The translations under genes were made by a program, and so were the position numbers. Below are positions 12,368 through 63,605 of a stretch of DNA of 64,000 bases, in pieces. The notes beneath the pieces are model-generated. The model had not been told where the DNA came from and did no database searches. It saw only the letters and a program-made list of their open reading frames with translations. Location of the stretch: positions 199,537 to 263,536 of the forward strand of contig CAZSTS010000003.1 of assembly GCA_964609965.1 (NCBI GenBank). The letters run 5' to 3'. Origin of the DNA: an uncultured Nitrospirales bacterium (GTDB lineage Bacteria > UBA10199 > JADGCS01). Numbering within the stretch: position 1 is the first letter of the stretch; each line of letters begins with the position of its first letter.

Positions 12368-12399
12368 TGGGTTGTGGATAGTGGATTGTGGGTCGAGAA
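12365..12399. repeat. Tandem heptanucleotide array (tagtggg ttgtgga tagtgga ttgtggg)
   Basis: 7-nt periodicity starting at the stop codon of the carboxyltransferase gene. Confidence 0.65.
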
Positions 12400-16122: not shown

Positions 16123-16165
16123 GGACGTCTAGAGTCTTGCGTCTAGTGTCTAGCGTCTGGCGTGA
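16123..16165. repeat. Tandem heptanucleotide array (gtctaga gtcttgc gtctagt gtctagc gtctggc)
   Basis: 7-nt periodicity immediately after the Crp stop. Confidence 0.7.
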
Positions 16166-16189
16166 AAAGCTATCTAGTATTCCAAGACG

Positions 16190-25463: not shown

Positions 25464-25465
25464 AG

Positions 25466-25505
25466 GAGTTTGGAGTGATGAGTAATGAGCGATGAGAAAT
25501 GACAT
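25466..25505. repeat. Tandem heptanucleotide array (ggagttt ggagtga tgagtaa tgagcga tgagaaa tgacata)
   Basis: 7-nt periodicity directly adjoining the palindrome. Confidence 0.6.
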
Positions 25506-27083: not shown

Positions 27084-27539
27084 TTACCATTTACGTGAGT
27101 TTTGTGGTGCAAAAAGTTCTGTGCCAGAATGACTAGGTTCGTCAGCTGCTTCTTCAGCAGGAAAAAACGCTGCACCACCATTTGCTTTAAATACTGTGGC
27201 TGCGTCTTTGTCTAGAATTCTGGTAACATAATCAGTGGCAACGCTTTTAGGTTTAGTTTGCAAAACCAGAGCCAGATCTTGAGAGGCCCTTGCTAAAGCT
27301 TCGGCATCTGTGACTTCTTTATCAGAATCACTAGCTTGCAATGCTTTTCTTCCGTATGCGGTAAGTTCACGCTTTTCTACATCACTATTGAGACCCCAGG
27401 TAAAAGCACCATCACCATTATCAAAGGGTTTGAGGTCAGGATTTTGGTCGTAATAACTAAGTTGCTTTTCAGCAGGGTTGTTAGCGACTTCAGGTGCAGT
27501 TTCATTTCTATATTGTGCGGATAGGGCTTCATCTAACAT
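27084..27539 (-). CDS. Hypothetical 151-aa protein, paralog A of a tandem pair; first gene of the cluster
   Basis: See paralog B. No signal peptide. Confidence 0.55.
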   Translation of the reverse strand: MLDEALSAQYRNETAPEVANNPAEKQLSYYDQNPDLKPFDNGDGAFTWGLNSDVEKRELTAYGRKALQASDSDKEVTDAEALARASQDLALVLQTKPKSVATDYVTRILDKDAATVFKANGGAAFFPAEEAADEPSHSGTELFAPQNSRKW

Positions 27540-37449: not shown

Positions 37450-37453
37450 TGGG

Positions 37454-37488
37454 GCGTGGATCGTGGGTCGTAGGTCGTGGATAGAGGT
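37454..37488. repeat. Tandem heptanucleotide array (gcgtgga tcgtggg tcgtagg tcgtgga tagaggt)
   Basis: Directly after the fadN stop. Runs into a terminator hairpin. Confidence 0.65.
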
Positions 37489-40231: not shown

Positions 40232-40343
40232 GCCTTGTATCTGCTACTTTTTTGAACAAACCCTAGTGGTTCTGTTTTTCAACAGTCACTTTTTCGAGGA
40301 ATTATTTACAAAGAATCGAGGAAAATGGCAATTCTATTTAAAA

Positions 40344-40462
40344 GGTTACGGTTAGGGTCACGAGGCCCGTTTCGTCTTTCGGTTACGGTTACGTGTTCAT
40401 GCTCTGACGTAACCCATACCGCTAAACGATACGGGCTTCGTAACCGATACACGCTACCTGTA
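40344..40462. repeat. Extended heptad-periodic array rich in ggttacg/cgtaacc units
   Basis: 7-nt periodicity. Partly palindromic (ggttacg vs cgtaacc). Confidence 0.45.
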
Positions 40463-40538: not shown

Positions 40539-41537
40539 ATGAATTTTAATAAGATAAAAAGTAAACTTTCCCTCATTTTTTTCATTATTGGTATTGTCCT
40601 GCTTATTTCCTTAATCAAAAAAGTGGGGTGGCACGAGGTCTTGTCTTATTTTAAAAAATTAGATTACAAGATAATCTATGTTTTTCTCTTTCCCATGACT
40701 TGGTATTCCATTCAAAGTTTTGCCTGGTGGCGGGTTCTCACTGATGATGGTGTTAAGGTTTCTCTAATTCATGTCTTTCTGACAAAAATAACAGGCGAAG
40801 CTGTAAACACGGTTACTCCTTTGAGTTTTTTTGGAGGAGACCCTTATCGCATTTATCTTTTACAGAAAAAGATTTCAAAAACAGATAGTGCCTCATCAGT
40901 GGTCATTGATCGGACAATGTATTTTTTGGGCGTGTTTTTATTGCTTTTCGTTACGTTTTTTGTAGCCTGGTTTAGGTTGCCATTGCCTGGTCATTGGAGG
41001 GTTTTATTCCCAGCCATTATTGTTTTATTTTTTATTATTTTTTTCCTATTAATAAAGATTCAGAAGAAGGGAATGTTTACGTTTATCAGTCGTCTTGTCC
41101 TGAAAACAGGTATTCAAAGAGATCGCATTGAATCGTATTCGGATAAAATAGCTGATTTAGACCAGCAGATAGGGGGGTTTTATAAAAAACATAAGCTGCA
41201 TTTTTTTGAAATCTTGGGTCTTCATTTTTCAGGGCGTATCTTAGGAGCTTTCGAAATCCTCATTATTGCAAATCTTTTGGGGCTCCCAATTGAATTCTAT
41301 CATTGTCTCTACTTGGCTTCACTCACTGTGCTTATCAACGTCATGTTTGTTTTTATTCCAGGGAGCATGGGTGTGATGGAAAGTGGTTATGGAGCTCTTT
41401 TTTATCTTCTCAACATTGCTTGGGAACACGGCGTTGCGCTTCAACTCGTTCGTCGTATCCGTGCCTTTTTCTGGATCGGCATTGGGCTTCTCATCATATT
41501 GTTTTATAAACCAAAGAAAGACAGTTTGGGCGTCTAG
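40539..41537 (+). CDS. UPF0104 / lysylphosphatidylglycerol-synthase-TM-like flippase-family membrane protein
   Basis: The N-terminal KLSLIFFIIGIVLLISLIKKVGWHEV motif is typical of this family. Lies upstream of plsB. Confidence 0.55.
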   Translation: MNFNKIKSKLSLIFFIIGIVLLISLIKKVGWHEVLSYFKKLDYKIIYVFLFPMTWYSIQSFAWWRVLTDDGVKVSLIHVFLTKITGEAVNTVTPLSFFGGDPYRIYLLQKKISKTDSASSVVIDRTMYFLGVFLLLFVTFFVAWFRLPLPGHWRVLFPAIIVLFFIIFFLLIKIQKKGMFTFISRLVLKTGIQRDRIESYSDKIADLDQQIGGFYKKHKLHFFEILGLHFSGRILGAFEILIIANLLGLPIEFYHCLYLASLTVLINVMFVFIPGSMGVMESGYGALFYLLNIAWEHGVALQLVRRIRAFFWIGIGLLIILFYKPKKDSLGV

Positions 41538-41610
41538 AGTCTAGCGTCTAGCGTATTGACCTATCAGTTATCGCCTATCGTGTCTTGTAACCTGCGTCCT
41601 GTAACCCCCT
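41530..41610. repeat. Tandem heptanucleotide array (gtctaga gtctagc gtctagc gtattga cctatca gttatcg cctatcg ...)
   Basis: Spans the stop codon and the whole spacer before plsB. Confidence 0.7.
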
Positions 41611-41649: not shown

Positions 41650-44445
41650 TTGTCTGAATGGGCTTCATACAGTATATTAGTGGATATGAAAAAGGTAATA
41701 TATGTCATTGGAAAGAATATCCTCATTCTTTTGAGAAAGCCTCTTACATGGCTATTATTGCGTAATAGAGAGCGTGTTGAACAGTATGGCACGCAGGTTA
41801 AGAATAAAACGCTTTCGGGCATGGTATTAGAGTTCAATTTTTGGCACAGAATCATCTTTTTGCCCTTTTTTCGAAGAGTCCAAGTTCTTTCCTCAGATAT
41901 TAGCACGATCAAATCTCTCAATGGGCCTGTTGTTTTTGTCATGAAAAACAGAGGACAACTTGAGTATCATTATTTTAATTATCTTTTCCTCAAAGAAAAA
42001 ATCTCACCTATTCACTTTGCCAATGGTTGCCTGACCGTTCACTGGTTGCCTTTTAAGAAATTATGGCAACACCTTGTTTGCCGTCTTGATCGTTTTTACA
42101 AAGAACTCAAAGAGGACAGTGTAGAAGAAAAAACTTACCTTACAGAATTGTTTCAAGAAGGAAAAAATACCCTGGTCAATTTAAGCATTTCTCGCGATTA
42201 CCTATTTGGATTGATCAAAACTAACCCCATAGATGCTCTCACGCCTCTGACAAGCATTCAAAGTCAAATTAAACAACCTATCCACGTTGTGACTCTTCAA
42301 TTTCACTTTGATAAGCATCCGGGTAAAACAGAGCTGTCTTATTTTGATCTTCTTTTTGGCGAAAAGTCTCAACCAGGGGCGATCCGAAAAATCCTTCTCT
42401 TCCTCATGAATTATAGGAGAAAGCCTAGAGTAAAATTTGGAAAGCCTATTAATTTACAAGAATACTTGAATGATAAATCTAATCTATCAGAAGACAAACA
42501 AACCGAATCTCTTTTTCACGTGATCGAAGATGACTTACGCATAGAGCACGCCAGAATTACAGGGCCAAAGCTTAGGTCAAAAGAGAATTTTATTACCGAG
42601 ATCATGGCTGATGAGGCTTTTTTGGAAAGCATTCATTCTCATGCAGATAGAAACAACAAAAAATTTGTAGATTGTAAAAATCAGGTTTTGCGCTATCTGA
42701 ACGAAATAGGGGCTGATGTAAATTACAGTTATATTCATTTTGCGCACATTACGCTCAGACATGTGTGGGAAAAAATCTTCAATGGTCTTGTGGTCAAGCA
42801 TGATCAGCTCAACCAGGTTAGAGAGGTCGCAGGGAAAAATCCTATTGTCCTTGTTCCCATGCACCGTTCCCACATTGATTACCTGCTCATCTCAGATCTG
42901 TTTTATGAATACAATATTACGTTTCCTTATATTTGTGCAGGCATAAACCTCAATTTTTGGCCAGTGGGCAAACTCATTCGAAAATGTGGCGGATTTTTCA
43001 TCCGTCGTAGATTCCGTGGCAATTATCTGTATAAAGAATCACTTTATGCTTATGTGAAATCATTGATTAGCAAGCAACATGGACTCGAATTTTTTATCGA
43101 AGGCACGCGCTCACGCACAGGCAAGCAATTAAAGCCCAAGATGGGTATTTTGAGCATGGTGATGAGGGCCTATCTTGAGGGCGCTTGTGATGATATTTAC
43201 TTTGTTCCCATAGCTGTTAATTATGATCACATACTCGAGCAAAGGGAATACCAAAAAGAGACTAAAGGTGATGAGAAAAAGAAGGAAAATGCTGGAGAAT
43301 TATTTAGAGTTCGCAAAATATTTAAAAGAAAATACGGAAAGGTGTATGTAGAGTTTGCTAAACCTCTTTCTCTCAAACAATACTGTGCAGACAATAAGAT
43401 TAAAACAGCGCCAATAGATACGTTAAAGAAAGAAGTCGCTGTTTTTGCCAATCACCTTACTCATCGCATGACCGATGTGGCAATAGTCACACCTATTTCT
43501 CTCGCTTCTTTGGCGATTCTGTCTATGAATAAGAAGGCCTTTAACTTTGATCAGCTCGAAAAGCGTATCCACGTCTTAAAGGATTATCTTGAGCACAAAG
43601 AAGCAGTGTTCTCTGACCTTATTAATTACAATGAGAGCTATGCTTATCATGAGGCGGTCAAAAAACTCTCTGGCAGGGGCATGCTTAAAGAAGTGGAATC
43701 TTTTGAAGAGACCTTTTTCTCATTTGATGACCGTCGTCGACAGGATTTTGATTATTATAAGAATAACATCGTTCATTTCTATGTCCTTCTCACATGTTTT
43801 TGTAAGGTTGTCGGCCAAATACCCAATCAGGCTAAAATCACTGTAGATGAACTTCTCAAGAGATTCGGTATTCTCAAAAATCTCTTTTCACATGATTTTA
43901 TTTTTAGTGAAGATGAGGCTATAAAAAATGAGTTTATTGAGGTCATTCATTATGCGGTGACAAAAGAGTTTGTGGCTTATGATGAAAAGACTCAAACTAT
44001 CACAAAGAGTATTACAGAACAGAATTATAGTGACTTTTTGACCTTTTATTCATTGTTAGACAATTTCCTAGAATCTCACCTCATTGCTTTGCGTTATCTC
44101 AAATACAATAAGGTAGAGGCAAGTGATGCCAAGTCGCTCACAAAAGACATACTTGTCAAAGCCAAGCCCATGTATCTCAGAGATGATCTCGCGCATCCAG
44201 AATCTTTGTCGCGCTTTAATCTCGAAAGCTCGTACAAGGTGTTGGCTGATCTAGGTATTCTCAATATCCAAAGAAAAGAAGGGCAGAGAGGTGTTTATTC
44301 CTCAAACCAAGATCTCGAACAAATCAATCAATGGATTAATTCCATTTCACAGTTTCTCAAAGTTTCACCTACTATTGGCGGAGCGCCCGTCAGCCTGATC
44401 GACTCACCTGAGGTTGTTAAAGAATCCCAAGATTGGCAGCATTGA
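41650..44445 (+). CDS. plsB: Glycerol-3-phosphate acyltransferase
   Basis: HRSHIDYLL, FFIRR, EGTRSRTG and IPI motifs collinear with E. coli PlsB. The start may instead be at 41686. Confidence 0.9.
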   Translation: MSEWASYSILVDMKKVIYVIGKNILILLRKPLTWLLLRNRERVEQYGTQVKNKTLSGMVLEFNFWHRIIFLPFFRRVQVLSSDISTIKSLNGPVVFVMKNRGQLEYHYFNYLFLKEKISPIHFANGCLTVHWLPFKKLWQHLVCRLDRFYKELKEDSVEEKTYLTELFQEGKNTLVNLSISRDYLFGLIKTNPIDALTPLTSIQSQIKQPIHVVTLQFHFDKHPGKTELSYFDLLFGEKSQPGAIRKILLFLMNYRRKPRVKFGKPINLQEYLNDKSNLSEDKQTESLFHVIEDDLRIEHARITGPKLRSKENFITEIMADEAFLESIHSHADRNNKKFVDCKNQVLRYLNEIGADVNYSYIHFAHITLRHVWEKIFNGLVVKHDQLNQVREVAGKNPIVLVPMHRSHIDYLLISDLFYEYNITFPYICAGINLNFWPVGKLIRKCGGFFIRRRFRGNYLYKESLYAYVKSLISKQHGLEFFIEGTRSRTGKQLKPKMGILSMVMRAYLEGACDDIYFVPIAVNYDHILEQREYQKETKGDEKKKENAGELFRVRKIFKRKYGKVYVEFAKPLSLKQYCADNKIKTAPIDTLKKEVAVFANHLTHRMTDVAIVTPISLASLAILSMNKKAFNFDQLEKRIHVLKDYLEHKEAVFSDLINYNESYAYHEAVKKLSGRGMLKEVESFEETFFSFDDRRRQDFDYYKNNIVHFYVLLTCFCKVVGQIPNQAKITVDELLKRFGILKNLFSHDFIFSEDEAIKNEFIEVIHYAVTKEFVAYDEKTQTITKSITEQNYSDFLTFYSLLDNFLESHLIALRYLKYNKVEASDAKSLTKDILVKAKPMYLRDDLAHPESLSRFNLESSYKVLADLGILNIQRKEGQRGVYSSNQDLEQINQWINSISQFLKVSPTIGGAPVSLIDSPEVVKESQDWQH

Positions 44446-44503
44446 GGGTTGGTCGAAGGTCAAAAGTCTAAGGTCAGGGGAGCTGATGGGAAGGGTTAAG
44501 CTG
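44446..44503. repeat. Tandem heptanucleotide array (ggtcgaa ggtcaaa agtctaa ggtcagg ...)
   Basis: Between convergent plsB and the XRE gene. Confidence 0.65.
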
Positions 44504-44798: not shown

Positions 44799-45051
44799 GG
44801 TCTTTTAGCTCTAAAACGCTTAAGTTATAGTATAGTATAACTTATACTGTGATATAAGTCAAAAAATATCAGAATTATTTTAACTTATTCAAGACACAAA
44901 AAAATCCCCGAAAGGGGATTAATAAAATAGCCCAGGGTTAAGAAAGCCTGAAAGGCTTTTCCTACCCTGGGATTGAAGATAATTTATAACATCTGATTAG
45001 ACATAAAGCTCCAAGTATTCGCTTTATGTTTTCATATTACTATCGCGCTGA

Positions 45052-45076
45052 TCTGGGCTCGTAAAACTCACCCATG
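45052..45076. repeat. Copy of the 25-nt motif CTGGGCTCGTAAA(A/G)CTC(A/G)CCCA(T/C)GC; second copy at 57500-57524
   Basis: 22/25 identity between the two intergenic copies. Confidence 0.5.
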
Positions 45077-45081
45077 CTTAA

Positions 45082-46729: not shown

Positions 46730-47236
46730 ATGGCAGAAACCAGCTTTGATCCTAATCAAACAAGAGATGTTCAGTATCCTGAAACAGCACCTGCTTCTGA
46801 ACTAGCAGTTACTTCTGAACTAGGAGTTACTTTTGAACTAGCGCCTGCTTCTGAAGCAGTACCTGCTTCTGAACCAGAGGTTGATAATGCGGTTAATAAT
46901 CCAGATGTATCAGAGTATGGTAGTTATGACGTGTCACAGTCTTTGAGTGAATGGCCTAATGGTTTTTCTTTTCCCATGCAGCTGGGGTGTGCTGCGTCTG
47001 AAAGAAATTCTACTTCCGAGCAACACTTTGCTAAAGCTCAGCTTATTTCAGTAGGTCTTGGTTATTTGGACATTAATGCAGCGAGTATTATACGTGGTGA
47101 AACGACTGTAGAGTTTAGTTCATGTTCAGGCTCAGCATTTAGTATTGATACTTATACTGGGGCGGTAAGCAAAAATGTTGCGTTGCTGCCGCTAATAGAA
47201 GTGGATCGATTGGTTGTAATTCTTGGAGAAGAGTAG
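46730..47236 (+). CDS. Hypothetical protein (168 aa) with N-terminal PASE/TSEL mini-repeats
   Basis: ORF with an AGGAG-like RBS. Internal repeat APASELAVTSELGVTFELAPASEAVPASEPEV. Confidence 0.4.
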   Translation: MAETSFDPNQTRDVQYPETAPASELAVTSELGVTFELAPASEAVPASEPEVDNAVNNPDVSEYGSYDVSQSLSEWPNGFSFPMQLGCAASERNSTSEQHFAKAQLISVGLGYLDINAASIIRGETTVEFSSCSGSAFSIDTYTGAVSKNVALLPLIEVDRLVVILGEE

Positions 47237-47809: not shown

Positions 47810-49276
47810 CTAAAACAACGGCGTAGCAGCAATCTTAGCCAGTTTGACAAAGGCATCAGGGGCAACGCCTAAGAAGATAACGAGGAAGGCACAGATAGTC
47901 ATGGAAATGCAGGCGGTGAGAGGGATTTCGTTTACAGGGGTTGGTGCATTCTCATCTTTAGCAAAAAACATATACACAGAAGGTCTTAAGTAATAATAAG
48001 CAGAAACAACCGACATGAGAACCGCAACGACCGAAAGAAGAATGTGACCGTTGTGTACGGCCATGGAAATAATGTTGAATTTAGCAGCAAAACCCACTGT
48101 GCCTGGAATCCCAATCAGCGAAATCATGAAAAGCGTGAACACCCCAGCCAAGACAGGATGCTTCTTTGCAAGCCCACGCATGTCAGTGAGCTGATCTGCC
48201 TCAGACTTTTCGCGTATCAATAATGATAAAACAGCAAATGCCCCCAACGTCATGAGGAGATAGCCGAGTAGGTAAAAAAGAACCACATGCGATGAAAAGG
48301 GCATGTACGTGCCTTTCACATACCCTGCAATGATTCCAAACAAAAGAAAACCAGCGTGTGAGATAGATGAATACGCGAGCATCCTCTTTACGTTATCTTG
48401 CACGAGAGCCAAGAGATTTCCAACCAAGAACGTGGCAATAACTAATGTGTTAAGTAAGAAATAAACCTGTTTTAAATCCAAAACATTCAGACTAATGAAA
48501 AGTCGCAATGCAAATCCAAACGCCGCAATCTTCACACCTGTTGCCATAAAACCTGTGACCGGTGCTGGTGCGCCTTCATAAACATCAGGTGCCCAAAAAT
48601 GAAAAGGCACGATGGCTAGTTTGAAAAACACACCTACTAATATGAGGGAAACAGCGATTTTTGGGAGATAGGCAAGGCTTGGTGTTGAAAGCATGGTGCC
48701 AAGCTGGCTGAGCTTGAATGTGCCAAAAGCCCCGTAAAACAGAGCAATACCGTAGAGTAAAATCGCCGAAGCCACACCACCGATGATAAAGTATTTGATG
48801 GCTGCTTCGTTGCTCTTATAGCTTTTCTTGTGTGAGGCCACGAGCACATAAATAGAAAGAGACATGGTCTCAAGGCCGATAAAGTTCACAAAGAGATGGT
48901 CAGAGGCAAACAAGAACACCATGCCTGTGATCGAAAAAAGGACGAGTGAACAAAACTCAGCAGTGAGAGTCTTGTGGATCTTCATGTAGCCCAAGGCATT
49001 GAAGAGTGTGATGATGCCCACAGCAATAACCAAGAACAAAAAGAAGAGAGTAAGGAGGTCAATCACTAATAGGCTTTGCGTGAGGGTGGTTGTAAAAGAA
49101 GCCCATTGTTTAAACCCTGTGAAGAGCGAAGCAAAAAGAGTTAAGATGCCTACGGCATACACAAGAGAGGTCATCTTTTTTGGCCAGATACAGTCGATGA
49201 GTAGGCAAAGAATGGCACCGCCAAATAAGATCCAAATCGCAATTCCTGCAGATAAAATGTTCATTAATTCGGTCAT
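47810..49276 (-). CDS. nuoN: NADH-quinone oxidoreductase subunit N
   Basis: Polytopic antiporter-like subunit. Its position after nuoM. Confidence 0.9.
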   Translation of the reverse strand: MTELMNILSAGIAIWILFGGAILCLLIDCIWPKKMTSLVYAVGILTLFASLFTGFKQWASFTTTLTQSLLVIDLLTLFFLFLVIAVGIITLFNALGYMKIHKTLTAEFCSLVLFSITGMVFLFASDHLFVNFIGLETMSLSIYVLVASHKKSYKSNEAAIKYFIIGGVASAILLYGIALFYGAFGTFKLSQLGTMLSTPSLAYLPKIAVSLILVGVFFKLAIVPFHFWAPDVYEGAPAPVTGFMATGVKIAAFGFALRLFISLNVLDLKQVYFLLNTLVIATFLVGNLLALVQDNVKRMLAYSSISHAGFLLFGIIAGYVKGTYMPFSSHVVLFYLLGYLLMTLGAFAVLSLLIREKSEADQLTDMRGLAKKHPVLAGVFTLFMISLIGIPGTVGFAAKFNIISMAVHNGHILLSVVAVLMSVVSAYYYLRPSVYMFFAKDENAPTPVNEIPLTACISMTICAFLVIFLGVAPDAFVKLAKIAATPLF

Positions 49277-49277
49277 A

Positions 49278-50828
49278 TTATTTTTCCAATGCTACTACGT
49301 CTTCAGCTTTTATCACTTCGTTCGTGTCTTCAAACTTTGCCATTGTTCTCTCATCATCTAATTTAAGTAAAATCGTTTCAGCTGATCTTTCAATCTTGTT
49401 CAAGAAAGGTTTTGGGTAAATGCCAAGCCAGAAGATAAAGATCACAATCACAGCCATCACAAGACATTCTCTCAAGTTGAGATCTTTTCCAAGTCCCTTT
49501 GTTTCTTTTGGTTTTCCAAAAAACACACGTTCAACAAGCCAGAGCATGTAAATAGCTCCTAAAACCACTCCAGTTGCCCCGAGAATCGCGAACACGGGTT
49601 TTGTTTGATAAGTTCCGAGTAAAGTGAGGAATTCGCCAACAAAACCGTTTGTGAGCGGCACACCAATGGATGAGAGGGTCACAATAATAAAAAACACAGT
49701 GTACACAGGCATGGCCTTAGCAAGTCCTGAATAATCTTTGATCATGCGCGTGTGCGTTCTGTCGTAAAGCATTCCAATGAGAAGAAAGAGGGCGCCAGTT
49801 GAAATACCATGATTAAAAATTTGATACAGGCCACCTGTCATCCCTGTTTTATTCAGCGAGAACAAACCAATCATCACAAGTCCCATGTGCGACACAGATG
49901 AATAAGCGATAAGCTTTTTCATATCAGGCTGCACCATGGCAACAAGGGCACCGTAGATGACCCCAATGGCAGCGAGAATCATGAGATAGTTTTGAAGGTA
50001 TTGCATGGCATCAGGAAAAAGAGGAATACCAAAGCGAAAGAAACCATACGTTCCCATTTTAAGCAAAATACCTGCTAGGATTACGGAACCTGCTGTGGGT
50101 GCTTGAACATGAGCGTCGGGCAACCACGTGTGAAAAGGAAACATAGGCACTTTAATCGCAAAGGCTAAAGCCATGGCCAAAAAGACCCAACACTGCGCAC
50201 CAAAAGTGAGTCGGTAATTATAGAGTTCTAAGAGGTTAAAACTCTGTCCTGCTCTAAAATAGAGATACAAAATAGCCACCAGCATGATCACAGAACCAAG
50301 CATGGTGTAGAGAAAGAATTTGAGAGAGGCATAAATACGGTTTTCACCACCCCAGACCCCAATGAGAAAATACATGGGGATGAGCATGATCTCCCAAAAG
50401 ACATAGAATAAGAAGAGATCAAGCGCGCAAAAAACACCAATCATGCCAGTGAGCAGGAACATTAGGCAGAGGAGGTAGAATTTGAGGTTGTTTTGAACAG
50501 AGTTCCAGGTGCCTAAGAGAACAAGGGGCATGGTGATGGTTGTGAGCATGATGAGTAAAAGACTCACACCATCGATTCCCAAAAGATAATGGATGTTCCA
50601 TTGCTCTATCCAAGGGATGTCGATCATGAACTGGTCGATCACACCCGTATTATTAAAGTTAAAGTAGAGTTTAAGTGAGATAAGTACTTCTAAACCAAAG
50701 ACAATAAGAGCTATTGCTTTTAACAGTACAGGACGATTTTTTGGGATAAATGCCAAGACAAGGACCCCCAAGAGAGGGAGAAAGATCAAAAGTGTGAGTA
50801 GGGGCTGATTAACGAGTTGAGTTATCAT
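49278..50828 (-). CDS. nuoM: NADH-quinone oxidoreductase subunit M
   Basis: Antiporter-like complex I subunit motifs. Confidence 0.9.
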   Translation of the reverse strand: MITQLVNQPLLTLLIFLPLLGVLVLAFIPKNRPVLLKAIALIVFGLEVLISLKLYFNFNNTGVIDQFMIDIPWIEQWNIHYLLGIDGVSLLLIMLTTITMPLVLLGTWNSVQNNLKFYLLCLMFLLTGMIGVFCALDLFLFYVFWEIMLIPMYFLIGVWGGENRIYASLKFFLYTMLGSVIMLVAILYLYFRAGQSFNLLELYNYRLTFGAQCWVFLAMALAFAIKVPMFPFHTWLPDAHVQAPTAGSVILAGILLKMGTYGFFRFGIPLFPDAMQYLQNYLMILAAIGVIYGALVAMVQPDMKKLIAYSSVSHMGLVMIGLFSLNKTGMTGGLYQIFNHGISTGALFLLIGMLYDRTHTRMIKDYSGLAKAMPVYTVFFIIVTLSSIGVPLTNGFVGEFLTLLGTYQTKPVFAILGATGVVLGAIYMLWLVERVFFGKPKETKGLGKDLNLRECLVMAVIVIFIFWLGIYPKPFLNKIERSAETILLKLDDERTMAKFEDTNEVIKAEDVVALEK

Positions 50829-50843
50829 ATTCTAATATTTTTC

Positions 50844-52802
50844 TTAGGTTAGTACCAATGTAATCAGAACCAACCAAAGTCCTATTAATAAATAAAAAAC
50901 ATAATGGTTAATATAGCCTGTTTGAATAATCGAGAGCGAACGGGCAAAAAACCGTGAAGCATGGGCCAAACCATTGACCATGAGACCATCGATAATTTTA
51001 GCGTCAAAAATCTTATTTAAGAAACAATCAGAAATCACTTTTATGGGGGTGATGATCAGGGCATTGTAGAGTTCATCAACTTTAAATTTGTTATAAACTA
51101 AATTGTAGAGAAAGCTTAAGCTCTTCTTAATGGGGGCTGTAAAGTTAAGGTTCTTAGTGTAGAGGCGATAGGCCATATAAAGACAGAAAACAGCCCAAGC
51201 AGTCGAGATAAGCATGAGGTGGCCTTCTTGTAAGAACGAACCGTCAATGTGATGAGGTGTGTGTTGTCCTAAAGAGTTAAGCCAATGTCCAAACCAATTA
51301 TGACCAAAGATATGGGGGAGTCCAATAAAACCAACGAGTGACGCAAACACAGCTAATATGATGAGAGGGTAAGTCATCACAGCAGGTGATTCATGGATTT
51401 TTTCTGGGTGTTTGTAGCGAGTCTCACCCATGAATGTATAGACGAAAGCGCGCATCATATAAAAGGCAGTGATGCCAGCAGTGAGCAATCCTAACCAATA
51501 GTAAATGGGGTGCTGGCCATTGGCGTACGTCATGTAAAGGATCTCATCCTTACTAAAAAAACCAGAAAACGGAGGAATGCCAGAGATAGCCAAAGTGAAG
51601 AGCAAAAACGTGATAGCTGTTATTGGCATCTTCTTCCACAGCCCACCCATTTGTCTTATATCTTGTTCATGATGGAGAGAGTTAATCACAGAACCAGCGC
51701 AAAGGAAAAGTCCTGCTTTAAAGAAGGCGTGTGTAAAGACGTGAAAGATGGCTCCCGAAAAAGCACCCACACCTAGGGCCAAGAACATATAACCCAGCTG
51801 ACTTACAGTCGAGTAGGCCAGGACTTTTTTAATATCGTACTGTGTGAGACCAATGAGCGCGGCAATAAAGGCTGTTGAGACTCCCACAATAGCAATGACG
51901 TGCAGGGTAATGGGGGCTAAGACAAAGAGAAAACTCAATTTGGCGATCATGTAAATGCCTGCTGTGACCATTGTGGCAGCGTGGATGAGAGCTGATACAG
52001 GAGTAGGGCCTGCCATGGCATCGGGGAGCCATATATAGAGAGGGATTTGAGCAGACTTTCCTGTGGCGCCAAAGAAAAGACAAAGCGTGATCAGTGTGAT
52101 ACCTGGGCCAAGTAAGTGGGCGTTTTGTGAGAGAGTGGCAATGTCCAAGAAATTCGTACTGGTTGGACTAGCATCGCCTTGGATTCCCACTAAGGTGGCC
52201 ACGATCATGAACATGCCAAGCAAAAAACCAAAATCACCAATGCGGTTCACAATAAAGGCTTTTTTACCTGCCACGGCTTTTTCTTTATCGGTAAACCAAA
52301 AGCCAATGAGAAGATAAGAACAAAGCCCAACGCCTTCCCAACCCACAAAGAGAAAAACAAGAGAGTCGGCCAGAACAAGAATAAGCATGAAAAAGAGAAA
52401 GAGATTTAAGTACGCCATGTATCTGGCATAAGCTTCGTCTTCTTTCATATAACCGATCGAATACACATGGATGAGGAATCCAACTCCAGTAATGAAAAGA
52501 AGCATGATGCTTGTGAGGTGGTCGATACAGAAGCCAAAGGAAAGAGAGAATTCTTCTAAGATCATCCAGTCTAAAAGATTGCTGGCTTTGAGGGAGACAA
52601 GATCAGGGTTTTGAAAAAGGGTTATGAATGCAAAAACTGATATGAGAAAGGCCAGAAAAGTTGAAGAACAGGCAATGAAAGATGTGATCTTAGTGCTAAA
52701 AAAGCCTTTGCCCCGAGATTGTTGAAAGGCAATGATCCCGTTCATGAAAAAACCGAGTAGAGGAAGAAGGGGGATGAGGGTTATGTATAAGCTGTTAGTC
52801 AT
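50844..52802 (-). CDS. nuoL: NADH-quinone oxidoreductase subunit L
   Basis: 652 aa with a long C-terminal extension typical of NuoL. Confidence 0.9.
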   Translation of the reverse strand: MTNSLYITLIPLLPLLGFFMNGIIAFQQSRGKGFFSTKITSFIACSSTFLAFLISVFAFITLFQNPDLVSLKASNLLDWMILEEFSLSFGFCIDHLTSIMLLFITGVGFLIHVYSIGYMKEDEAYARYMAYLNLFLFFMLILVLADSLVFLFVGWEGVGLCSYLLIGFWFTDKEKAVAGKKAFIVNRIGDFGFLLGMFMIVATLVGIQGDASPTSTNFLDIATLSQNAHLLGPGITLITLCLFFGATGKSAQIPLYIWLPDAMAGPTPVSALIHAATMVTAGIYMIAKLSFLFVLAPITLHVIAIVGVSTAFIAALIGLTQYDIKKVLAYSTVSQLGYMFLALGVGAFSGAIFHVFTHAFFKAGLFLCAGSVINSLHHEQDIRQMGGLWKKMPITAITFLLFTLAISGIPPFSGFFSKDEILYMTYANGQHPIYYWLGLLTAGITAFYMMRAFVYTFMGETRYKHPEKIHESPAVMTYPLIILAVFASLVGFIGLPHIFGHNWFGHWLNSLGQHTPHHIDGSFLQEGHLMLISTAWAVFCLYMAYRLYTKNLNFTAPIKKSLSFLYNLVYNKFKVDELYNALIITPIKVISDCFLNKIFDAKIIDGLMVNGLAHASRFFARSLSIIQTGYINHYVFYLLIGLWLVLITLVLT

Positions 52803-52897
52803 AGGTTACAGGTTACAGGCTTCAGGTTACAAGTCACGGGATACGATAATCGATAGGTTTTCAGTCGACCCACAATTCACTATCTACGATCCACTAG
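52803..52897. repeat. Heptanucleotide array filling the entire nuoK-nuoL spacer (gttacag gttacag gcttcag gttacaa gtcacgg gatacga ...)
   Basis: About 13 consecutive 7-nt units. Confidence 0.75.
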
Positions 52898-53206
52898 TCA
52901 TCCTTTCATAGCCTTTAAATCATCTGTTTTAATCGTCTCTCTATTTCTAAAAAGCGCGATCACAATACCAAGTCCAATGGCTGCCTCCACAGCAGCAATA
53001 GCCATCACAAAAATAGAAATCACATGCCCATCTATATTATTATAATAACGCGCGAGGGCAATAAAGGTGAGATTAACTGCATTCATGAGCACTTCGATGC
53101 ACATGAGTACAATAAGAATATTTCTTCTGATAATAATGCCAATAAGACCCAAGCAAAATAACAATGCTGATAAAATGAGGTAATGATGTATCGAAATAGA
53201 AGTCAT
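52898..53206 (-). CDS. nuoK: NADH-quinone oxidoreductase subunit K
   Basis: 102 aa, three TM helices, NuoK-like. Confidence 0.9.
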   Translation of the reverse strand: MTSISIHHYLILSALLFCLGLIGIIIRRNILIVLMCIEVLMNAVNLTFIALARYYNNIDGHVISIFVMAIAAVEAAIGLGIVIALFRNRETIKTDDLKAMKG

Positions 53207-53220
53207 AAAAAAAAGTACCT

Positions 53221-53715
53221 CTACGATTCCTTTCTTCCTAATAAGACAGCCCCCACAATACCCACGAGGAGCAAGACTCCAATGAGTTCAAAGGGGATGA
53301 CATATTTTGTAAACATGAGTTCGCCTATTTGCTCAGCTGTGCCAAACTCTGGTGCTAGTTCTGGAAGGTGTATTAATGGCAATAAGAGAAATTCAATGGC
53401 AAAAAAGGCAAATAACCCAAGGCCTATGAGTATGGCTATGATTCGGCCTAGGTTAAGCTTATCGCGAATATAATCATTCTTTTTGAGATTAAGGAGCATG
53501 ATAACAAAAACAAATAAGACCATGACAGCGCCTGCGTAGACGAGGATTTGTAAAACAGCTACAAAATGAGCGCTGAGTAATGCGTAGAGTGCTGCCAGTG
53601 AGAAGAAGGAAATAATAAGACAAAAGGCGCTTGAGATAGGGTTCTTTTGAAGAATCATTAAGATGACAGTGGAAACCGTGATAAAAGAAAATATGTAGAA
53701 TAGATACACGTCCAT
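53221..53715 (-). CDS. nuoJ: NADH-quinone oxidoreductase subunit J
   Basis: 164 aa, NuoJ-like TM pattern. Confidence 0.85.
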   Translation of the reverse strand: MDVYLFYIFSFITVSTVILMILQKNPISSAFCLIISFFSLAALYALLSAHFVAVLQILVYAGAVMVLFVFVIMLLNLKKNDYIRDKLNLGRIIAILIGLGLFAFFAIEFLLLPLIHLPELAPEFGTAEQIGELMFTKYVIPFELIGVLLLVGIVGAVLLGRKES

Positions 53716-53756
53716 ATAATTTGGTCAAAGGTCTAAGGTCAAAAGTCAAATGTCAG
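53716..53756. repeat. Heptanucleotide array filling the nuoH-nuoJ spacer (ggtcaaa ggtctaa ggtcaaa agtcaaa tgtcaga)
   Basis: Seen directly. It occupies the position where nuoI would normally be. Confidence 0.75.
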
Positions 53757-55006
53757 AGGGCCATTCGTAAGGCCGTAATCACAATATTTACCATAGCCAA
53801 AGGTAATAAAACTTTCCAACCCAGGTTCATGAGTTGGTCATATCTAATTCGGGGTACTGTCCAGCGGATCCAAATAAAAACCCAACACATGAAAAGAGTT
53901 TTTGCTAAAAAGATACCTGCTTGAATGAGTGCTGTGATCCACAGGCCAGCACTTTGGGGTAAAGGTATTTTACCAAAGAAGATGATTGCGATGATGAGGG
54001 CAACACCAACAAAGAGTGCAGGGAGTCCCCAAACGAGAACCTCATAATCACGTTTGTCTCCGTAATGCCCTTTTTTGAATTTAAGACTTAAGTAAATCCC
54101 TACAATGATGGCAATCAAAGCTGTGCCAGATAAAAGGGCGAATAATACTTGGCTCGCGTTGCTGCGCATGAACTCGGTTGAGATAAAGGGAACCTGCCAG
54201 CCACCAAAGAACAAAGTAACGATTAAAGCTGAGGCAATAACCATGTTCACGTATTCAGCCATAAAGAACATAGAGAATTTGAGAGAAGAATATTCCACAT
54301 GATAGCCAGCTACAAGTTCGGATTCGCCTTCTGGGAGGTCAAAGGGGGTTCTGTTAGTTTCGGCAAAGGCTGATATAATAAAGATAATACAGGCTATGGG
54401 ATCAAAAAAGCAGTGCCAGCGCCAAACATTGGCGGTTTGGGTGAGGACCATATCATTTAAGGAGAGAGATCCCGTCCACATGACGATTGAAATGATGGCC
54501 AGTCCCATGGAGAGCTCATAACTGATCATTTGGGCGCTTGATCTTAAGCCCCCCAAAAGAGCGTATTTATTATTAGAGGACCATCCAGCCAACATAATGC
54601 CATATACACCCAGGCTAGTGATCGCTAATATATATAAGACACCGACATTGAGGTTAGCAGCCTGGAAATGGAAGAAATTGCCAGTAAATTCAGCAGGTTC
54701 GGCAAAAGGGATGACCATAAAGGTCACACAGGCCACAAAGAGGGCGATAAAGGGAGCAATTGTATAGTAGAACTTGTTTGCCTGGGAGGGGATGATGTCT
54801 TCCTTAAAGATGAGTTTGACCACATCGGCTATGGGGTGAACAAGGCCTCCAAGACGGACCCCTAATACAGCGGCTCTATTTGGCCCACGACGATCTTGAA
54901 TATAGGCAGATCCTTTGCGCTCTAGCCAGACGAGTAAAGGCACAAATGAGAAAATGATGGCAAAGGGAATGAGGATTTTGAGTAGGACTATGAGTATTTC
55001 AGACAT
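53753..55006 (-). CDS. nuoH: NADH-quinone oxidoreductase subunit H
   Basis: NuoH/ND1 signatures (...GWSSNNKYALLGGLR...). Confidence 0.9.
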   Translation of the reverse strand: MSEILIVLLKILIPFAIIFSFVPLLVWLERKGSAYIQDRRGPNRAAVLGVRLGGLVHPIADVVKLIFKEDIIPSQANKFYYTIAPFIALFVACVTFMVIPFAEPAEFTGNFFHFQAANLNVGVLYILAITSLGVYGIMLAGWSSNNKYALLGGLRSSAQMISYELSMGLAIISIVMWTGSLSLNDMVLTQTANVWRWHCFFDPIACIIFIISAFAETNRTPFDLPEGESELVAGYHVEYSSLKFSMFFMAEYVNMVIASALIVTLFFGGWQVPFISTEFMRSNASQVLFALLSGTALIAIIVGIYLSLKFKKGHYGDKRDYEVLVWGLPALFVGVALIIAIIFFGKIPLPQSAGLWITALIQAGIFLAKTLFMCWVFIWIRWTVPRIRYDQLMNLGWKVLLPLAMVNIVITALRMAL

Positions 55007-55089
55007 AGATCTCTATATATATACTTCTGGTTTTCGTATTCTGTACTCTAACAGGGCGGTTCATAACTAATAATATATATGATGACAAT

Positions 55090-55185
55090 TAAAAAAGAGG
55101 TCAAAGGTCTAAGGTCGAAAGTCGAAAGTCAAAGGTCATGGGGATTTCTTCTGACATTTGACCTTAGACTTTAGACTTTTGACCA
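55090..55185. repeat. Long imperfect palindrome made of two opposed heptanucleotide arrays (ggtcaaa ggtctaa ggtcgaa agtcgaa agtcaaa ggtcatg ... catttga ccttaga ctttaga cttttga cc)
   Basis: The arms are reverse-complementary over about 35 nt. Located upstream of nuoH. Confidence 0.75.
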
Positions 55186-55186
55186 A

Positions 55187-55744
55187 CTACAACTTATGCT
55201 TCTGCAATTCTTCACCCATGTATTTATCAAAAAGAATATGCCATTCAGCTGTACCAGGTACCACGTTCTTTTTAAGAGTCGCGATTTTCTTTATCACCAC
55301 ATCTTCTAGTCGGTCCCGGGTTGTCACAAATTCATTAATATCCTTTTGTATTTGACTCAATGCTTCTTCTTCATCTGTATAATTTACATCTTCATCCAAA
55401 TAGAGCTTATCATGAATCTTAAGCGCAATTGATTTAATATGGTCTTCGGAATAATTTATTTCGCTGTGATGGAGGCCTTCTTGTTTAAGGAGCTGAGTTT
55501 TGATCATTGAGAACATCTTTTGATAGTCAATTTCGCCAGACTCGATTTTATCGCGATACTGTTCTGTCATTTCTTTTGCCTTTTTGTTTATGGCATCAAA
55601 TTTAGCTGAATCAGCTAGAAAAACAGACTCAATCTTCTTTTTTATCTCAGCATCTGTTGAGATCAGCTTGATGAGCTTGTGGCCTACAAGAGAATTAAAA
55701 ATAATTTGAGAGAGTTTGACAAAGTGTTCTTTTTTGTATTTCAT
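55187..55744 (-). CDS. Hypothetical cytoplasmic helical protein (185 aa)
   Basis: ORF only. Confidence 0.4.
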   Translation of the reverse strand: MKYKKEHFVKLSQIIFNSLVGHKLIKLISTDAEIKKKIESVFLADSAKFDAINKKAKEMTEQYRDKIESGEIDYQKMFSMIKTQLLKQEGLHHSEINYSEDHIKSIALKIHDKLYLDEDVNYTDEEEALSQIQKDINEFVTTRDRLEDVVIKKIATLKKNVVPGTAEWHILFDKYMGEELQKHKL

Positions 55745-57112: not shown

Positions 57113-57171
57113 TAGATTATGAAGTTAAATCTAGATTTAACTTGAACAACCCACACCAAAAAGGAGGCGTA

Positions 57172-57387
57172 ATGGCCGTTAAAAAGAAAAAAAAGGTAGT
57201 AAGAAAGAAAAAAGCAACTAAGAAAAAAGCAGCTCCTAAAAAAAGAAAAACAGCAAAAAGAAAACCAGCTAAAAAGAAAAAAGCTGCTAAGAAAAAACCA
57301 GCTAAAAAGAAAAAAGCTGCTAAGAAAAAACCAGCTAAAAAGAAAAAAGCTGCTAAGAAAAAACCAGCAAAAAAGAAAAAGAAATAA
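57172..57387 (+). CDS. Histone H1-like Lys/Ala-rich DNA-binding protein (71 aa)
   Basis: Start set to the ATG at 57172, which has a perfect AGGAGG RBS. Composed of KKKPAKKKKAA repeats, comparable to Hc1/BpH1-type bacterial histone-like proteins. Confidence 0.7.
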   Translation: MAVKKKKKVVRKKKATKKKAAPKKRKTAKRKPAKKKKAAKKKPAKKKKAAKKKPAKKKKAAKKKPAKKKKK

Positions 57388-57456: not shown

Positions 57457-57486
57457 CACAAGGCTCGCGCCTTGTGTTTTGTTTTA
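57455..57486 (+). terminator. Second tandem terminator hairpin (cacaaggc-tcgc-gccttgtg then ttttgtttt)
   Basis: 8-bp stem plus a T-tract. Confidence 0.65.
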
Positions 57487-57499
57487 ACTAACGCGCTTA

Positions 57500-57524
57500 C
57501 CTGGGCTCGTAAAGCTCGCCCACG
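57500..57524. repeat. Copy of the 25-nt motif CTGGGCTCGTAAAGCTCGCCCACGC (see 45052-45076)
   Basis: Sequence identity to the other copy. Confidence 0.5.
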
Positions 57525-57594
57525 CTTTTTTTTTACCCTACAATATGAGTAAGGCCTTAAATTAGTTATTGCTCCTGTCTCCACTTGTCGTTAT

Positions 57595-60352: not shown

Positions 60353-60372
60353 AGTCTTGTGTCGAAGGGCAT

Positions 60373-60406
60373 AAAAAAAACGCTCATCAATGATGAGCGC
60401 TTTTTG
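60373..60406. terminator. Bidirectional rho-independent terminator (A-run, gcgctcatc-aat-gatgagcgc, T-run)
   Basis: 9-bp perfect stem flanked by A and T tracts between convergent genes. Confidence 0.8.
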
Positions 60407-62204: not shown

Positions 62205-63605
62205 TTAGAGGCTATTCATGGCTATTTTTGAGCTCAGAACAGCTGATTCAATCGTGGGCGGGAGGTTTGTTTGGGTCCAATCACCGACGATACTGAAATT
62301 CTCGAGGACCTTTTGCCTTGGTCTGATCTCATCAATTTCAGGACTACAGTTTATGGTCGCATCTCTTTCAATATTAACAAGTGAATGTGTGAGTTTTGCT
62401 TCTTTCACTTTCGGATAAATTCTTTCCAGGTCCTTCATGGCAAGGGCAACAATTTCTTCTTTGCTTTTATCTAGAAAATCATAGGCGCCACTGATGGTGC
62501 CTACTACGTGCCTCGTGCTTCGTTCTTCGTTCCTCGTGCTTCGTCCCTCGTCGGACTTATTAAAGAACCAGTGGACTGTTGTAGAGGAGCTGCCGATAAA
62601 GAAATCTGTCATCACAGGACGGTCAAAGAAAAGGTTTAAGGAAACAATAGGAGAGCCTGTGAGTTGTTCGAGATTTTTAAAGGATTCATCTGTGTCGACA
62701 ATGGTTCGAGGGAGGGCATTCAAGAGAGCTCTCGGTGGCAAAGCAGATATATAGAGAGACGCCTTGAGTTCTGTGTTGTCCGCAAGATGAAAGGCCTGCA
62801 CTTTGTTGTCTAAAATACGGATTTCTTTAAGCCCAAGGTCTGTAATGATTTTATGACCACGGAGTTCAAGATACTTTCTTATAGGGTTGGCAAAAACATT
62901 TGAGAGACCTTCTTTTGGAAAGATCAAAAAACCATCTCTTTTCTGGGCAAAAAAACTGTTTATGAGGACTTGAACCAAAGAATTGGCTGAGGCAGCTTCC
63001 ACGCTGTTATTCAGGGTGGCCATTGTGAATGGTTCCCAAAAGCTGTTTATGGCTTTCTCCCCTTGCGCGTGTTTTTGGAGCCATTTTGACACTGTGAGGT
63101 TTAGGGGAGGATCTGATTTACCTGTATTAATTTTTTTGAGTTCTCGAGAAAGACCTATCAATCCAAATTTTTCTTTTATACTCATGCCGCCAAAAAACAA
63201 AATTGCTAAAGCGAGATTTAAAGGAGCGGGTAATAATCTCAGACAGAAAACATTTCTTTTAAACTTTGAGTCTAATAAAGGGACGATAGTTGGGATTTGG
63301 TATTTGATCTTGTGTTTTGCTCCTACGCGTTCAAGAAGCTTAATGGTTTCGTGGTAAGCTCCGATCATGAGGTGTTGTCCATTGTCGATTGTCTTCCCAG
63401 TTTTTTTATCTGTAAATGAGTATGTTCTTCCGCCCAAAATAGATTTTCGTTCAATCAATGTTACTTTGTAACCCAATTCATCGAGCATGACAGCTGCAGC
63501 AAGGCCTGCCAGACCTCCTCCAGCAATGAGGGCAGAGTTAGGGTGTGCCTCGTGGATCGTGCCTCGTTCTTCGTGGGGTGAGGGTTGTGGATCGGAGTGT
63601 TGCAT
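62205..63605 (-). CDS. FAD-dependent amine-oxidase/phytoene-desaturase family oxidoreductase (HpnE-like squalene-associated desaturase) carrying two repeat-derived insertions
   Basis: GxGxxG (IAGGGLAGLAAA). Family similarity and its position next to a squalene/phytoene synthase gene. Confidence 0.75.
   Translation of the reverse strand: MQHSDPQPSPHEERGTIHEAHPNSALIAGGGLAGLAAAVMLDELGYKVTLIERKSILGGRTYSFTDKKTGKTIDNGQHLMIGAYHETIKLLERVGAKHKIKYQIPTIVPLLDSKFKRNVFCLRLLPAPLNLALAILFFGGMSIKEKFGLIGLSRELKKINTGKSDPPLNLTVSKWLQKHAQGEKAINSFWEPFTMATLNNSVEAASANSLVQVLINSFFAQKRDGFLIFPKEGLSNVFANPIRKYLELRGHKIITDLGLKEIRILDNKVQAFHLADNTELKASLYISALPPRALLNALPRTIVDTDESFKNLEQLTGSPIVSLNLFFDRPVMTDFFIGSSSTTVHWFFNKSDEGRSTRNEERSTRHVVGTISGAYDFLDKSKEEIVALAMKDLERIYPKVKEAKLTHSLVNIERDATINCSPEIDEIRPRQKVLENFSIVGDWTQTNLPPTIESAVLSSKIAMNSL
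62508..62556. repeat. Heptanucleotide array (gtgcctc gtgcttc gttcttc gttcctc gtgcttc gtccctc gtcggac) inside the hpnE-like CDS
   Basis: 7 in-frame units that encode SDEGRSTRNEERSTRH. Confidence 0.7.
63545..63602. repeat. Heptanucleotide array (gtgcctc gtggatc gtgcctc gttcttc gtggggt gagggtt gtggatc) encoding the N-terminal 20 aa of the hpnE-like ORF
   Basis: The annotated N-terminus MQHSDPQPSPHEERGTIHEAH maps onto the repeat. Confidence 0.65.

Follow-up and report, generated by a model that had tools for sequence, protein, structure and literature searches.

What are the tandem heptanucleotides that fill spacers between genes for respiratory complex I in an uncultured marine bacterium? The question arises from a 64-kb stretch of contig CAZSTS010000003.1 (the window, meaning the whole stretch that was analysed), in which 7-nt repeats occupy the nuoK-nuoL and nuoH-nuoJ junctions and form a long hairpin upstream of nuoH. 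Metagenome-assembled genomes (MAGs) related to the source organism are labelled 'Deltaproteobacteria bacterium', some being of the UBA10199 type. The initial annotation treated the arrays as a feature of the nuo genes that might modulate mRNA processing, mRNA stability or translational coupling, and the hairpin as a possible terminator or attenuator. The analysis presented here favours a more general answer, namely that the arrays are probably heptanucleotide simple repeats similar to the short tandemly repeated repetitive (STRR) sequences, distributed genome-wide in non-coding spacers, which originate by slippage, are copied between loci and have incidental local effects. The repeat class is a known one; new is its occurrence in an uncultured marine lineage.

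A period of seven is a property of the window as a whole and extends well beyond the nuo genes, with which alone the arrays had been associated. A strict scan at lag 7 detected nine arrays as compared with approximately 0.05 in shuffled sequence, and all other lags from 3 to 15 gave zero or one array each, except for lag 14 with three, the second harmonic of 7. With a relaxed scan, 13 arrays were found at lag 7 versus zero to two at the other lags between 5 and 10. As the enrichment is unique to lag 7 and shuffled sequence yields almost none, chance is excluded for the window as a whole. Tandem Repeats Finder (TRF) concurs, reporting period 7 with 3.4-6.4 imperfect copies per array (70-92% matches); its period-7 calls in the nuo region are 52803-52831, 53723-53759, 55098-55138 and 55160-55183. 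Despite a coding fraction of 89.4%, 11 of the 13 arrays are intergenic, the other two being located inside the coding sequence of an amine-oxidase-family protein. Nine of the 11 intergenic arrays touch or overlap a stop codon, the association with stops exceeding that with starts, and the stop codon is sometimes part of the first repeat unit, i.e. supplied by the array itself, as in these cases:

5006-5020, stop codon within GGG TCG AAG GTC TAA
41529-41537, stop codon within GGC GTC TAG
nuoH stop codon, the TGA being the first TGAC of a TTTGACC-type array

At least eight unit families are present in the window (GGTCAAA, GCGTCTA, TGGGTCG, TAGTGGA, AGGTTAC, CCTATCG, GAGTGAT and CGTGCCT), of which GGTCAAA recurs in four places, TGGGTCG-like units in at least three, and GCGTCTA, TAGTGGA and GTAACCT/CCTATCG in two each, with both orientations relative to transcription found within the GGTCAAA, GCGTCTA and TGGGTCG families. 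Three or more head-to-tail 7-nt copies above chance, many loci with a bias towards non-coding DNA (in the 64 kb of the genome covered), unit families that recur at separate loci, and positions common to related species with varying length and sequence are what characterizes an STRR-like class, and each was found here. The window case has all descriptive features of the class and differs in the lineage, the many families, the stop codon association and the recurring composite modules. Clustered regularly interspaced short palindromic repeats were ruled out by the 7-nt period and the lack of spacers, G-quadruplexes by units without runs of G-tracts. A comparison with Rfam 15 gave no match at the gathering score in the window and, with an E-value threshold, only sub-threshold chance matches in 52780-55200.

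The arrays of the nuo region are embedded in a gene cluster assigned by Pfam:

47810-49276, minus strand, nuoN
49278-50828, minus strand, nuoM
50844-52802, minus strand, nuoL
52898-53206, minus strand, nuoK
53221-53715, minus strand, nuoJ
53753-55006, minus strand, nuoH
55187-55744, minus strand, gene for a DUF507 protein, upstream of nuoH

As nuoI and nuoA-G were not found in the 64-kb window, whose nuo genes are nuoHJKLMN only, the 'complex I operon' of the initial annotation comprises a membrane-arm cluster instead of the complete operon. Relatives with a NuoH identity as low as 65% keep the gene order nuoH-J-K-L-M-N, nuoI being absent between H and J, and a DUF507 gene usually precedes the nuo cluster (in the window and at the related loci L004-L008). 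NuoH has 417 amino acids and its Pfam match is split into two stretches, which suggests an insertion.

Within this cluster, the two spacers contain the following elements:

52865-52897, minus strand, module X of the nuoK-nuoL (K-L) spacer, TAGTGGA-type units directly after the nuoK stop codon
52803-52858, minus strand, module Y of the K-L spacer, CCTATCG-type and then CCTGTAA-type units (AGGTTAC on the plus strand), up to the nuoL ATG
53716-53757, minus strand, array of the nuoH-nuoJ (H-J) spacer, approximately five TTTGACC-type units in mRNA sense

By the gene calls, the spacers measure exactly the 95 bp (K-L, 52803-52897) and 37 bp (H-J, 53716-53752) that had been annotated, and both are 7-periodic, with lag-7 identity fractions of 0.58 and 0.63, respectively, next to 0.80 and 0.73 for the hairpin arms and 0.05-0.38 at other lags; shuffling of each of these features gave p-values of 2e-4 to 4e-4. 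The description of the spacers as consisting entirely of heptamers is borne out for the periodicity (p <= 4e-4 for each feature) and needs correction for the composition. The K-L spacer is not one clean array, as about four good AGGTTAC units (52803-52831) give way to two unit types that are more degenerate; at lag 7, this degenerate half (52845-52897) still reaches a fraction of 0.50 (p = 4e-4). Located at 53721-53757, the H-J array overlaps the nuoH TGA stop codon and leaves five non-array bases before the nuoJ ATG. The start codons of nuoJ and nuoL are devoid of Shine-Dalgarno pairing (+0.5 and -0.2 kcal/mol versus a window median of -4.5 kcal/mol), and neither window spacer is more structured as RNA than its shuffled versions (z = -0.6 for H-J, z = +0.2 for K-L). 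The nuoL/M and nuoM/N junctions stay tight.

The spacers have copies elsewhere in the window, and several inverted repeats that rank among its longest involve the nuo spacers. In module Y, 52811-52858 is a 48-nt inverted copy (79%) of 41559-41606, and in module X, 52865-52896 is a 32-nt inverted copy (88%) of 12365-12396, which follows a stop codon like module X and in the same orientation relative to transcription; indeed, both modules have the same orientation with respect to transcription at both of their loci. Because its parts match these two regions, the K-L spacer is composed of two dispersed modules joined end to end. Of the two hairpin arms, 55150-55186 corresponds to the H-J array 53721-53757 as a 37-nt inverted copy (89%) that extends to the non-periodic ends (TTGGTC...GTCAAATGTCAGA), and the other arm corresponds to it as a direct copy. 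The H-J array also resembles 44444-44480, and the three GGTCAAA-family arrays around nuoH constitute a local cluster. A further match links 16123-16174 with 41528-41565. Long-range pairing at the RNA level between 55150-55186 and the H-J array, which are separated by 1.4 kb and show 89% complementarity, was rejected, as the conserved nuoH promoter lies between them and the two would share a transcript only upon read-through.

The region between the DUF507 gene and nuoH is organized as follows:

55150-55186, minus strand, hairpin 5' arm, in mRNA sense TTGGTCAAAAGTCTAAAGTCTAAGGTCAAATGTCAGA, of GGTCNAA-type units, starting 1 nt past the DUF507 stop codon
55099-55138, minus strand, hairpin 3' arm, TTTGACC-type units in mRNA sense, TRF period 7 with 5.9 copies
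55091-55096, minus strand, run of six U (A6 on the plus strand) a few nt past the stem, the U-tract of the terminator-like structure
55060-55088, minus strand, promoter-like motif for nuoH, -35 TTGTCA (55083-55088), 17-nt spacer, -10 TATGAA (55060-65)

The imperfect palindrome described upstream of nuoH with about 35 bp per arm was recovered as two arms of 33 nt (55099-55131 and 55152-55184), 82% complementary and 20 nt apart, and the RNA in gene sense folds at -33.7 kcal/mol (z = -4.7; none of 200 shuffles as stable). The sequence right after the hairpin is CUCUUUUUU. TTG and TAT of the promoter-like motif are invariant and at fixed spacing in six genomes, i.e. the window, L004, L008, L005, L006 and L007 (alignment A1). 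A consensus promoter/terminator scan of the window returned no more sites than in shuffled sequence and missed TTGTCA-17-TATGAA because its -10 hexamer does not end in the T expected in position 6; the evidence for a promoter thus comes from alignment A1. With a stable stem-loop followed by a U-tract, located at the end of a transcription unit and upstream of a separate promoter-like motif, the structure resembles Rho-independent terminators, which likewise directly follow a stop codon, continue into a U-run and precede the next promoter. Its position between the DUF507 gene end and the probable nuoH promoter fits a terminator or insulator, and the hairpin is a plausible candidate for such a role in the DUF507 transcript. 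Canonical GC-rich terminators are also present in the window, for example after 37485 and at 60370-60400.

Comparison with related genomes separates what is stable from what is not. An identical NuoH is encoded on contigs from four or more metagenome samples, the nuo region of which is 99.95-100% identical to the window (0-2 single-nucleotide polymorphisms). A gapped nuoH/nuoJ-anchored pattern recovers the window and six strain contigs, all with a 42-nt gap, while the same type of pattern with a tolerance of +/-2 units gave no match in the Joint Genome Institute (JGI) metagenome collection; as the pattern works on the known contigs, the JGI collection does not contain the target species. The congeners, L004 and L008 ('MAG: bacterium isolate Modern_marine.mb.68'), which are the closest genomes apart from the same strain, have a NuoH 78% identical to that of the window and possess arrays at the same three junctions (DUF507-nuoH, H-J and K-L), composed of different units:

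upstream of nuoH, L004 (CCCATCGA)6.4 with period 8; L008 CCTGAGA-like
H-J junction, L004 opposed GTTCCAG/CTGGAAC; L008 GCGTCTA
K-L junction, L004 GTCGCAC + GACCAGC; L008 GTCGCTC + TAGACGC

L008 has an extra array in the J-K spacer. The coding DNA of L004 and L008 is approximately 84% identical, and their BLAST alignment stops at the DUF507-nuoH, H-J and J-K spacers; the K-L spacer alone is crossed by the alignment, differs in length by 16 nt between the two and has arrays that still have a GTCGCNC unit in common. What the window and the congeners share is only array presence at the three junctions, not sequence or structure, GCGTCTA being the only unit common to the window and a congener. Lack of conservation of the spacers in relatives had been named by the initial annotation among the refuting findings, and by this test a sequence-specific role fails.

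Where NuoH identity is 65-71%, relatives have no arrays at the H-J and K-L junctions, the spacers there being 0-19 bp long. In 70 genomes from many phyla, mostly 0-30 bp follow nuoH, and several longer intervals (L008, L009, L013 and L053) consist of heptamer arrays with yet other units. In total, 31 canonical units were counted among 45 arrays from the window and all related loci, and the pooled relatives contain 44 period-7 arrays, 12 of which derive from the same-strain contigs L001-L003, versus 16-17 arrays for periods 6, 8 and 9. Array hairpins inside the operon were found in some of the relatives:

L004, H-J junction, z = -4.3
L004, K-L junction, z = -3.2
L013, H-J junction, -42.4 kcal/mol, z = -7.3, with a U-run

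The L008 K-L spacer shows no significant structure (z = -1.35), and as hairpins occur in some relatives and neither in the H-J and K-L spacers of the window nor in L008 K-L, junction structure is not conserved. The proposal that intra-operon arrays act in mRNA processing, stability or translational coupling thereby found no positive support: the window spacers are unstructured, the units differ in the congeners, and distant relatives do without such spacers.

Three further observations were made at related loci. The nuoM-nuoN junctions of L006 (15744-15941, 198 bp) and L007 (15575-15695, 121 bp) carry long palindromic non-heptamer insertions, such that different repeat types colonise operon junctions in different lineages. 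In L007, inverted AGTCAGG/CTGACTC arrays (2137-2171 and 2315-2348) occupy both edges of a spacer, each abutting a gene end and together enclosing about 145 nt. In the Thermoanaerobaculia MAG L053 (11036-11200), which belongs to a distant phylum, a GGTCCAA/GGTCGAA array directly follows nuoH, with an opposed copy approximately 100 nt further on; its unit resembles the GGTCAAA family of the window, probably by convergence.

The other arrays of the window and a second long hairpin are located as follows:

5006-5049, between two plus-strand genes, array filling the 51-bp spacer, two GGTCNAA units of which encode the last codons and the TAA stop of the upstream gene
12364-12396, TAGTGGA/TTGTGGA array that follows the stop of a carboxyltransferase gene and precedes the Shine-Dalgarno sequence of the gene downstream
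16123-16165, GCGTCTA array directly after the stop of a Crp-family gene, between convergent genes
25465-25502, GAGTGAT-type array downstream of the minus-strand gene 25520-26062, at a distance of 17 nt from its stop codon
33523-33555, TGTGGGTCG-type array abutting the start codon of gene 32458-33522 (minus strand), in a divergent spacer
37450-37485, TGGGTCG array immediately past a stop codon; a GC-rich hairpin with T-run, distinct from the array, comes next
40343-40460 (approximately), second long hairpin, an imperfect palindrome in a divergent spacer with opposed, partly 7-periodic GGTTACG-type arms
41528-41606, composite element, a GCGTCTA array supplying the TAG stop of the upstream gene, then module Y (CCTATC + GTAACCT units)
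44446-44480, GGTCNAA-family array directly after the stop of a plsB-like gene, between convergent genes
62504-62552, CGTGCCT-type array in the amine-oxidase/FAD-family gene 62205-63605 (minus strand), 45 nt or 15 codons over a variable loop
63545-63597, CGTGCCT-family array in the same gene 62205-63605 (minus strand), covering most of the first 20 codons, upstream of the Rossmann motif

The palindrome at 40343-40460 folds at -55.7 kcal/mol (z = -5.5) without an Rfam match at the gathering score and could be an element similar to miniature inverted-repeat transposable elements (MITEs) or a structured RNA. The array at 62504-62552 was rejected as a clean insertion, as, judged from the L007 homolog, it is situated over a variable loop and adds no more than four residues.

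Repeats of other periods were noted as well. A small lysine/alanine-rich open reading frame (ORF) of histone H1-like composition (57142-57387, plus strand) is built on a 33-nt tandem repeat (57204-57380, 5.3 copies) and is called with 82, 60 and 71 amino acids in L001, L002 and L003, respectively. Two intergenic regions, 45020-45079 and 57468-57527, constitute a 60-nt direct repeat (80% identical) with a small hairpin CTGGGCTCGTAAAGCTCGCCCA, only sub-threshold Rfam matches being found around the second copy. The adjacent small ORFs 26578-27015 and 27084-27539 (minus strand) are tandem paralogs with 57-84-nt segments 76-84% identical at a 506-nt offset, and ORF 46730-47236 (plus strand) contains an 18-nt coding tandem repeat (46786-46874, 4.9 copies) in a protein without Pfam match.

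How could such arrays arise? Replication slippage would make the arrays and keep them homogeneous, and copying by recombination or gene conversion would spread them locally and between loci, as whole multi-unit modules recur elsewhere with non-periodic ends. The arrays would expand until they meet something under selection and be tolerated wherever no gene is damaged, with the consequence that they abut or supply stop codons and reach start codons. Two opposed copies after the DUF507 gene would have produced the long hairpin with its U-run, which probably terminates or insulates DUF507 transcription just upstream of the conserved promoter of nuoH itself. The single-orientation H-J and K-L arrays, by contrast, would be transcribed as unstructured spacers without Shine-Dalgarno sequence that replace the tight or overlapping junctions of distant relatives, so that nuoJ and nuoL would have to start without Shine-Dalgarno pairing or stop-start coupling. 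The array sequences themselves would not be under selection.

Some observations speak against this account or parts of it. The hairpin is atypical for an intrinsic terminator, with a long stem of approximately 33 bp that is built of repeats, rich in A/U and G-U pairs and internally mismatched, and with a 13-nt loop, and it escaped a simple terminator scan that allowed loops of up to 8 nt. In addition, the congeners L004 and L008 carry single arrays and no hairpin at the DUF507-nuoH position, on account of which the hairpin at the DUF507 end is a lineage-specific accident and not a conserved device. The terminator suggested by the initial annotation is a reasonable interpretation. With respect to slippage, the copy number of every array is constant in six near-clonal contigs from four samples, although the 33-nt coding repeat 57204-57380 does vary by one unit among near-identical strain contigs; as the contigs are almost clonal, they say little about slippage rates and are weak evidence either way. 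Finally, the arrays recur at the same three nuo junctions in three species, which could reflect selection for the spacer as such instead of neutral persistence. That spacers as such are under selection in the genus, the three junctions staying array-filled in three species with their content turned over, is considered improbable. If it were the case, the arrays would be cheap, self-renewing unstructured intercistronic gaps without Shine-Dalgarno sequence, or hairpins when two copies oppose each other, which would uncouple translation of successive polytopic membrane proteins and also supply stop codons, and a dedicated copying mechanism targeting stop-codon-proximal DNA would go along with it.

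The copied modules raise the question whether the arrays, instead of resulting from local slippage, are small mobile or dispersed MITE-like elements with insertion sites beside gene ends; MITE-like elements with inverted ends built of heptamer repeats exist in cyanobacteria. Multi-unit modules with common non-periodic ends at distant loci, two long palindromes built from opposed arrays, the preference for stop codons, and inverted array pairs that flank short segments in L007 (2137-2171, 2315-2348) and L008 (2364-2390, 3290-3321) would be in line with such elements. Yet no target-site duplication is evident at the palindrome flanks, a second full-length copy of either palindrome is absent from the 64 kb searched, most arrays have a single orientation without inverted ends, copy number and units vary continuously (31 units in 45 arrays), and partial Pfam scans found no linked transposase in the window, which makes this origin unlikely. 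The same hairpins can be viewed from the RNA side. Repetitive extragenic palindromes (REP) and bacterial interspersed mosaic elements (BIME) of enterobacteria have a conserved imperfect palindrome of about 35 nt and are linked to REP-associated tyrosine transposases (RAYT). Similar to these, structures between cistrons could shield upstream mRNA against 3' exonucleases or serve as marks for processing, and in this way set the ratios of Nuo subunits. The significant opposed-array hairpins inside the nuo operon of relatives (L004 H-J, L013 H-J and L004 K-L) and the hairpin at the DUF507 gene 3' end in the window are repetitive extragenic palindromes in operon spacers and at 3' ends as well, and may act alike as protectors of mRNA 3' ends. 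REP/BIME, though, are not tandem heptamers and have no sequence in common with the window arrays, most of which are non-palindromic, made of differing units and without a nearby inverted partner; both intra-operon spacers of the window lack significant structure, and junction structure is not conserved between congeners. The arrays do not qualify as REP/BIME, a result to which no genome-wide RAYT search contributed, and a similar role is rated as having a low probability.

In a further explanation, the arrays serve as cis-acting sites on the RNA, read by a protein with specificity for a periodic single-stranded motif (S1, Csp, CsrA or HutP-like), and control the translation of genes without Shine-Dalgarno sequence, as proposed for other bacteria (PMC4679880, for the Beggiatoaceae TAACTGA; bioRxiv 10.1101/2022.06.06.494920). 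The H-J and K-L spacers are unstructured and reach the starts of nuoJ and nuoL, which have no Shine-Dalgarno pairing, and modules X and Y have one orientation relative to transcription at both loci. At least eight unrelated unit families in one 64-kb window, both orientations within the GGTCAAA, GCGTCTA and TGGGTCG families, unrelated units at the orthologous junctions of the congeners and an association with stop codons that exceeds the one with start codons speak against such sites, and this explanation is also quite doubtful. Contingency loci, in which gain or loss of units switches neighbouring genes by phase variation, would equally consist of short tandem repeats at gene boundaries, and two arrays do reside within a coding sequence. 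But the arrays are imperfect (70-92% matches) and do not differ among six contigs from four samples, between which a 33-nt repeat close by gains or loses one unit, the adjacent genes are housekeeping genes of diverse function, and a 7-nt change in the coding arrays would frameshift a metabolic enzyme; phase variation is accordingly a very improbable explanation.

Slippage-derived simple repeats of the STRR type, the favoured reading, have several counterparts among known systems. To our knowledge, no function has been established for heptamer arrays in bacteria. Heptanucleotides are the most abundant unit of long simple sequence repeats in most bacterial genomes, for which polymerase slippage was proposed (Mrazek 2007, as cited in PMC4679880), and the cyanobacterial STRR sequences of Calothrix/Anabaena include three tandem heptanucleotides in Calothrix PCC7601 (Mazel et al. 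1990, as cited in PMC4692102). Arrays of GGGAATC in Xanthomonas and GGGGA(C/T)T in Nostoc are intergenic, near ORF ends and in inverted pairs (Rehm et al. 2015, PMC4692102), one Nostoc array being located inside the operon pecE-pecF (PMC4692102). With the cyanobacterial STRR, the window arrays share tandem 7-nt units, several families per genome, many non-coding loci near ORF ends, inverted pairs and the occurrence within an operon, nuo in place of pecE-pecF. They differ by phylum and units, by being short (3-6 units) and imperfect, by not being of G-tract or G-quadruplex type, and by composite multi-family modules that recur in the window. A literature search for STRR unit strings returned only unrelated papers. 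One STRR unit, TTGGTCA, resembles without equalling the GGTCAAA family of the window.

The Xanthomonas arrays are likewise next to ORF ends, without link to a class of gene function and with inverted repeats, whereas their one unit is G-rich, preferentially present in four copies and G-quadruplex-forming; the window has many unrelated units without G-quadruplex potential. In the Beggiatoaceae, TAACTGA arrays directly upstream of start codons without ribosome-binding sites led to the proposal of a translational role (MacGregor 2015, PMC4679880), and a preprint on Nostoc, in which a binding protein is a matter of speculation, describes heptamer arrays as affecting reporters modestly (bioRxiv 10.1101/2022.06.06.494920). 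Heptamers immediately upstream of starts without Shine-Dalgarno sequence and within essential operons are common to the Beggiatoaceae and the window, while the Beggiatoaceae arrays have TAACTGA as their one unit, for the most part in a single orientation and close to starts, as opposed to the many units, both orientations and stronger stop codon association observed here.

With respect to the organism, complex I biology is unchanged by these findings, as the genes are intact and the arrays look incidental. For the repeat class, the window provides a dense, multi-family example of heptamers outside cyanobacteria, Xanthomonas and Beggiatoaceae. The same junctions filled with unrelated units in three congeners, the array-supplied stop codons, the replaced Shine-Dalgarno regions and the copied modules are comparative assets that could help to separate neutral slippage from selected spacer functions.

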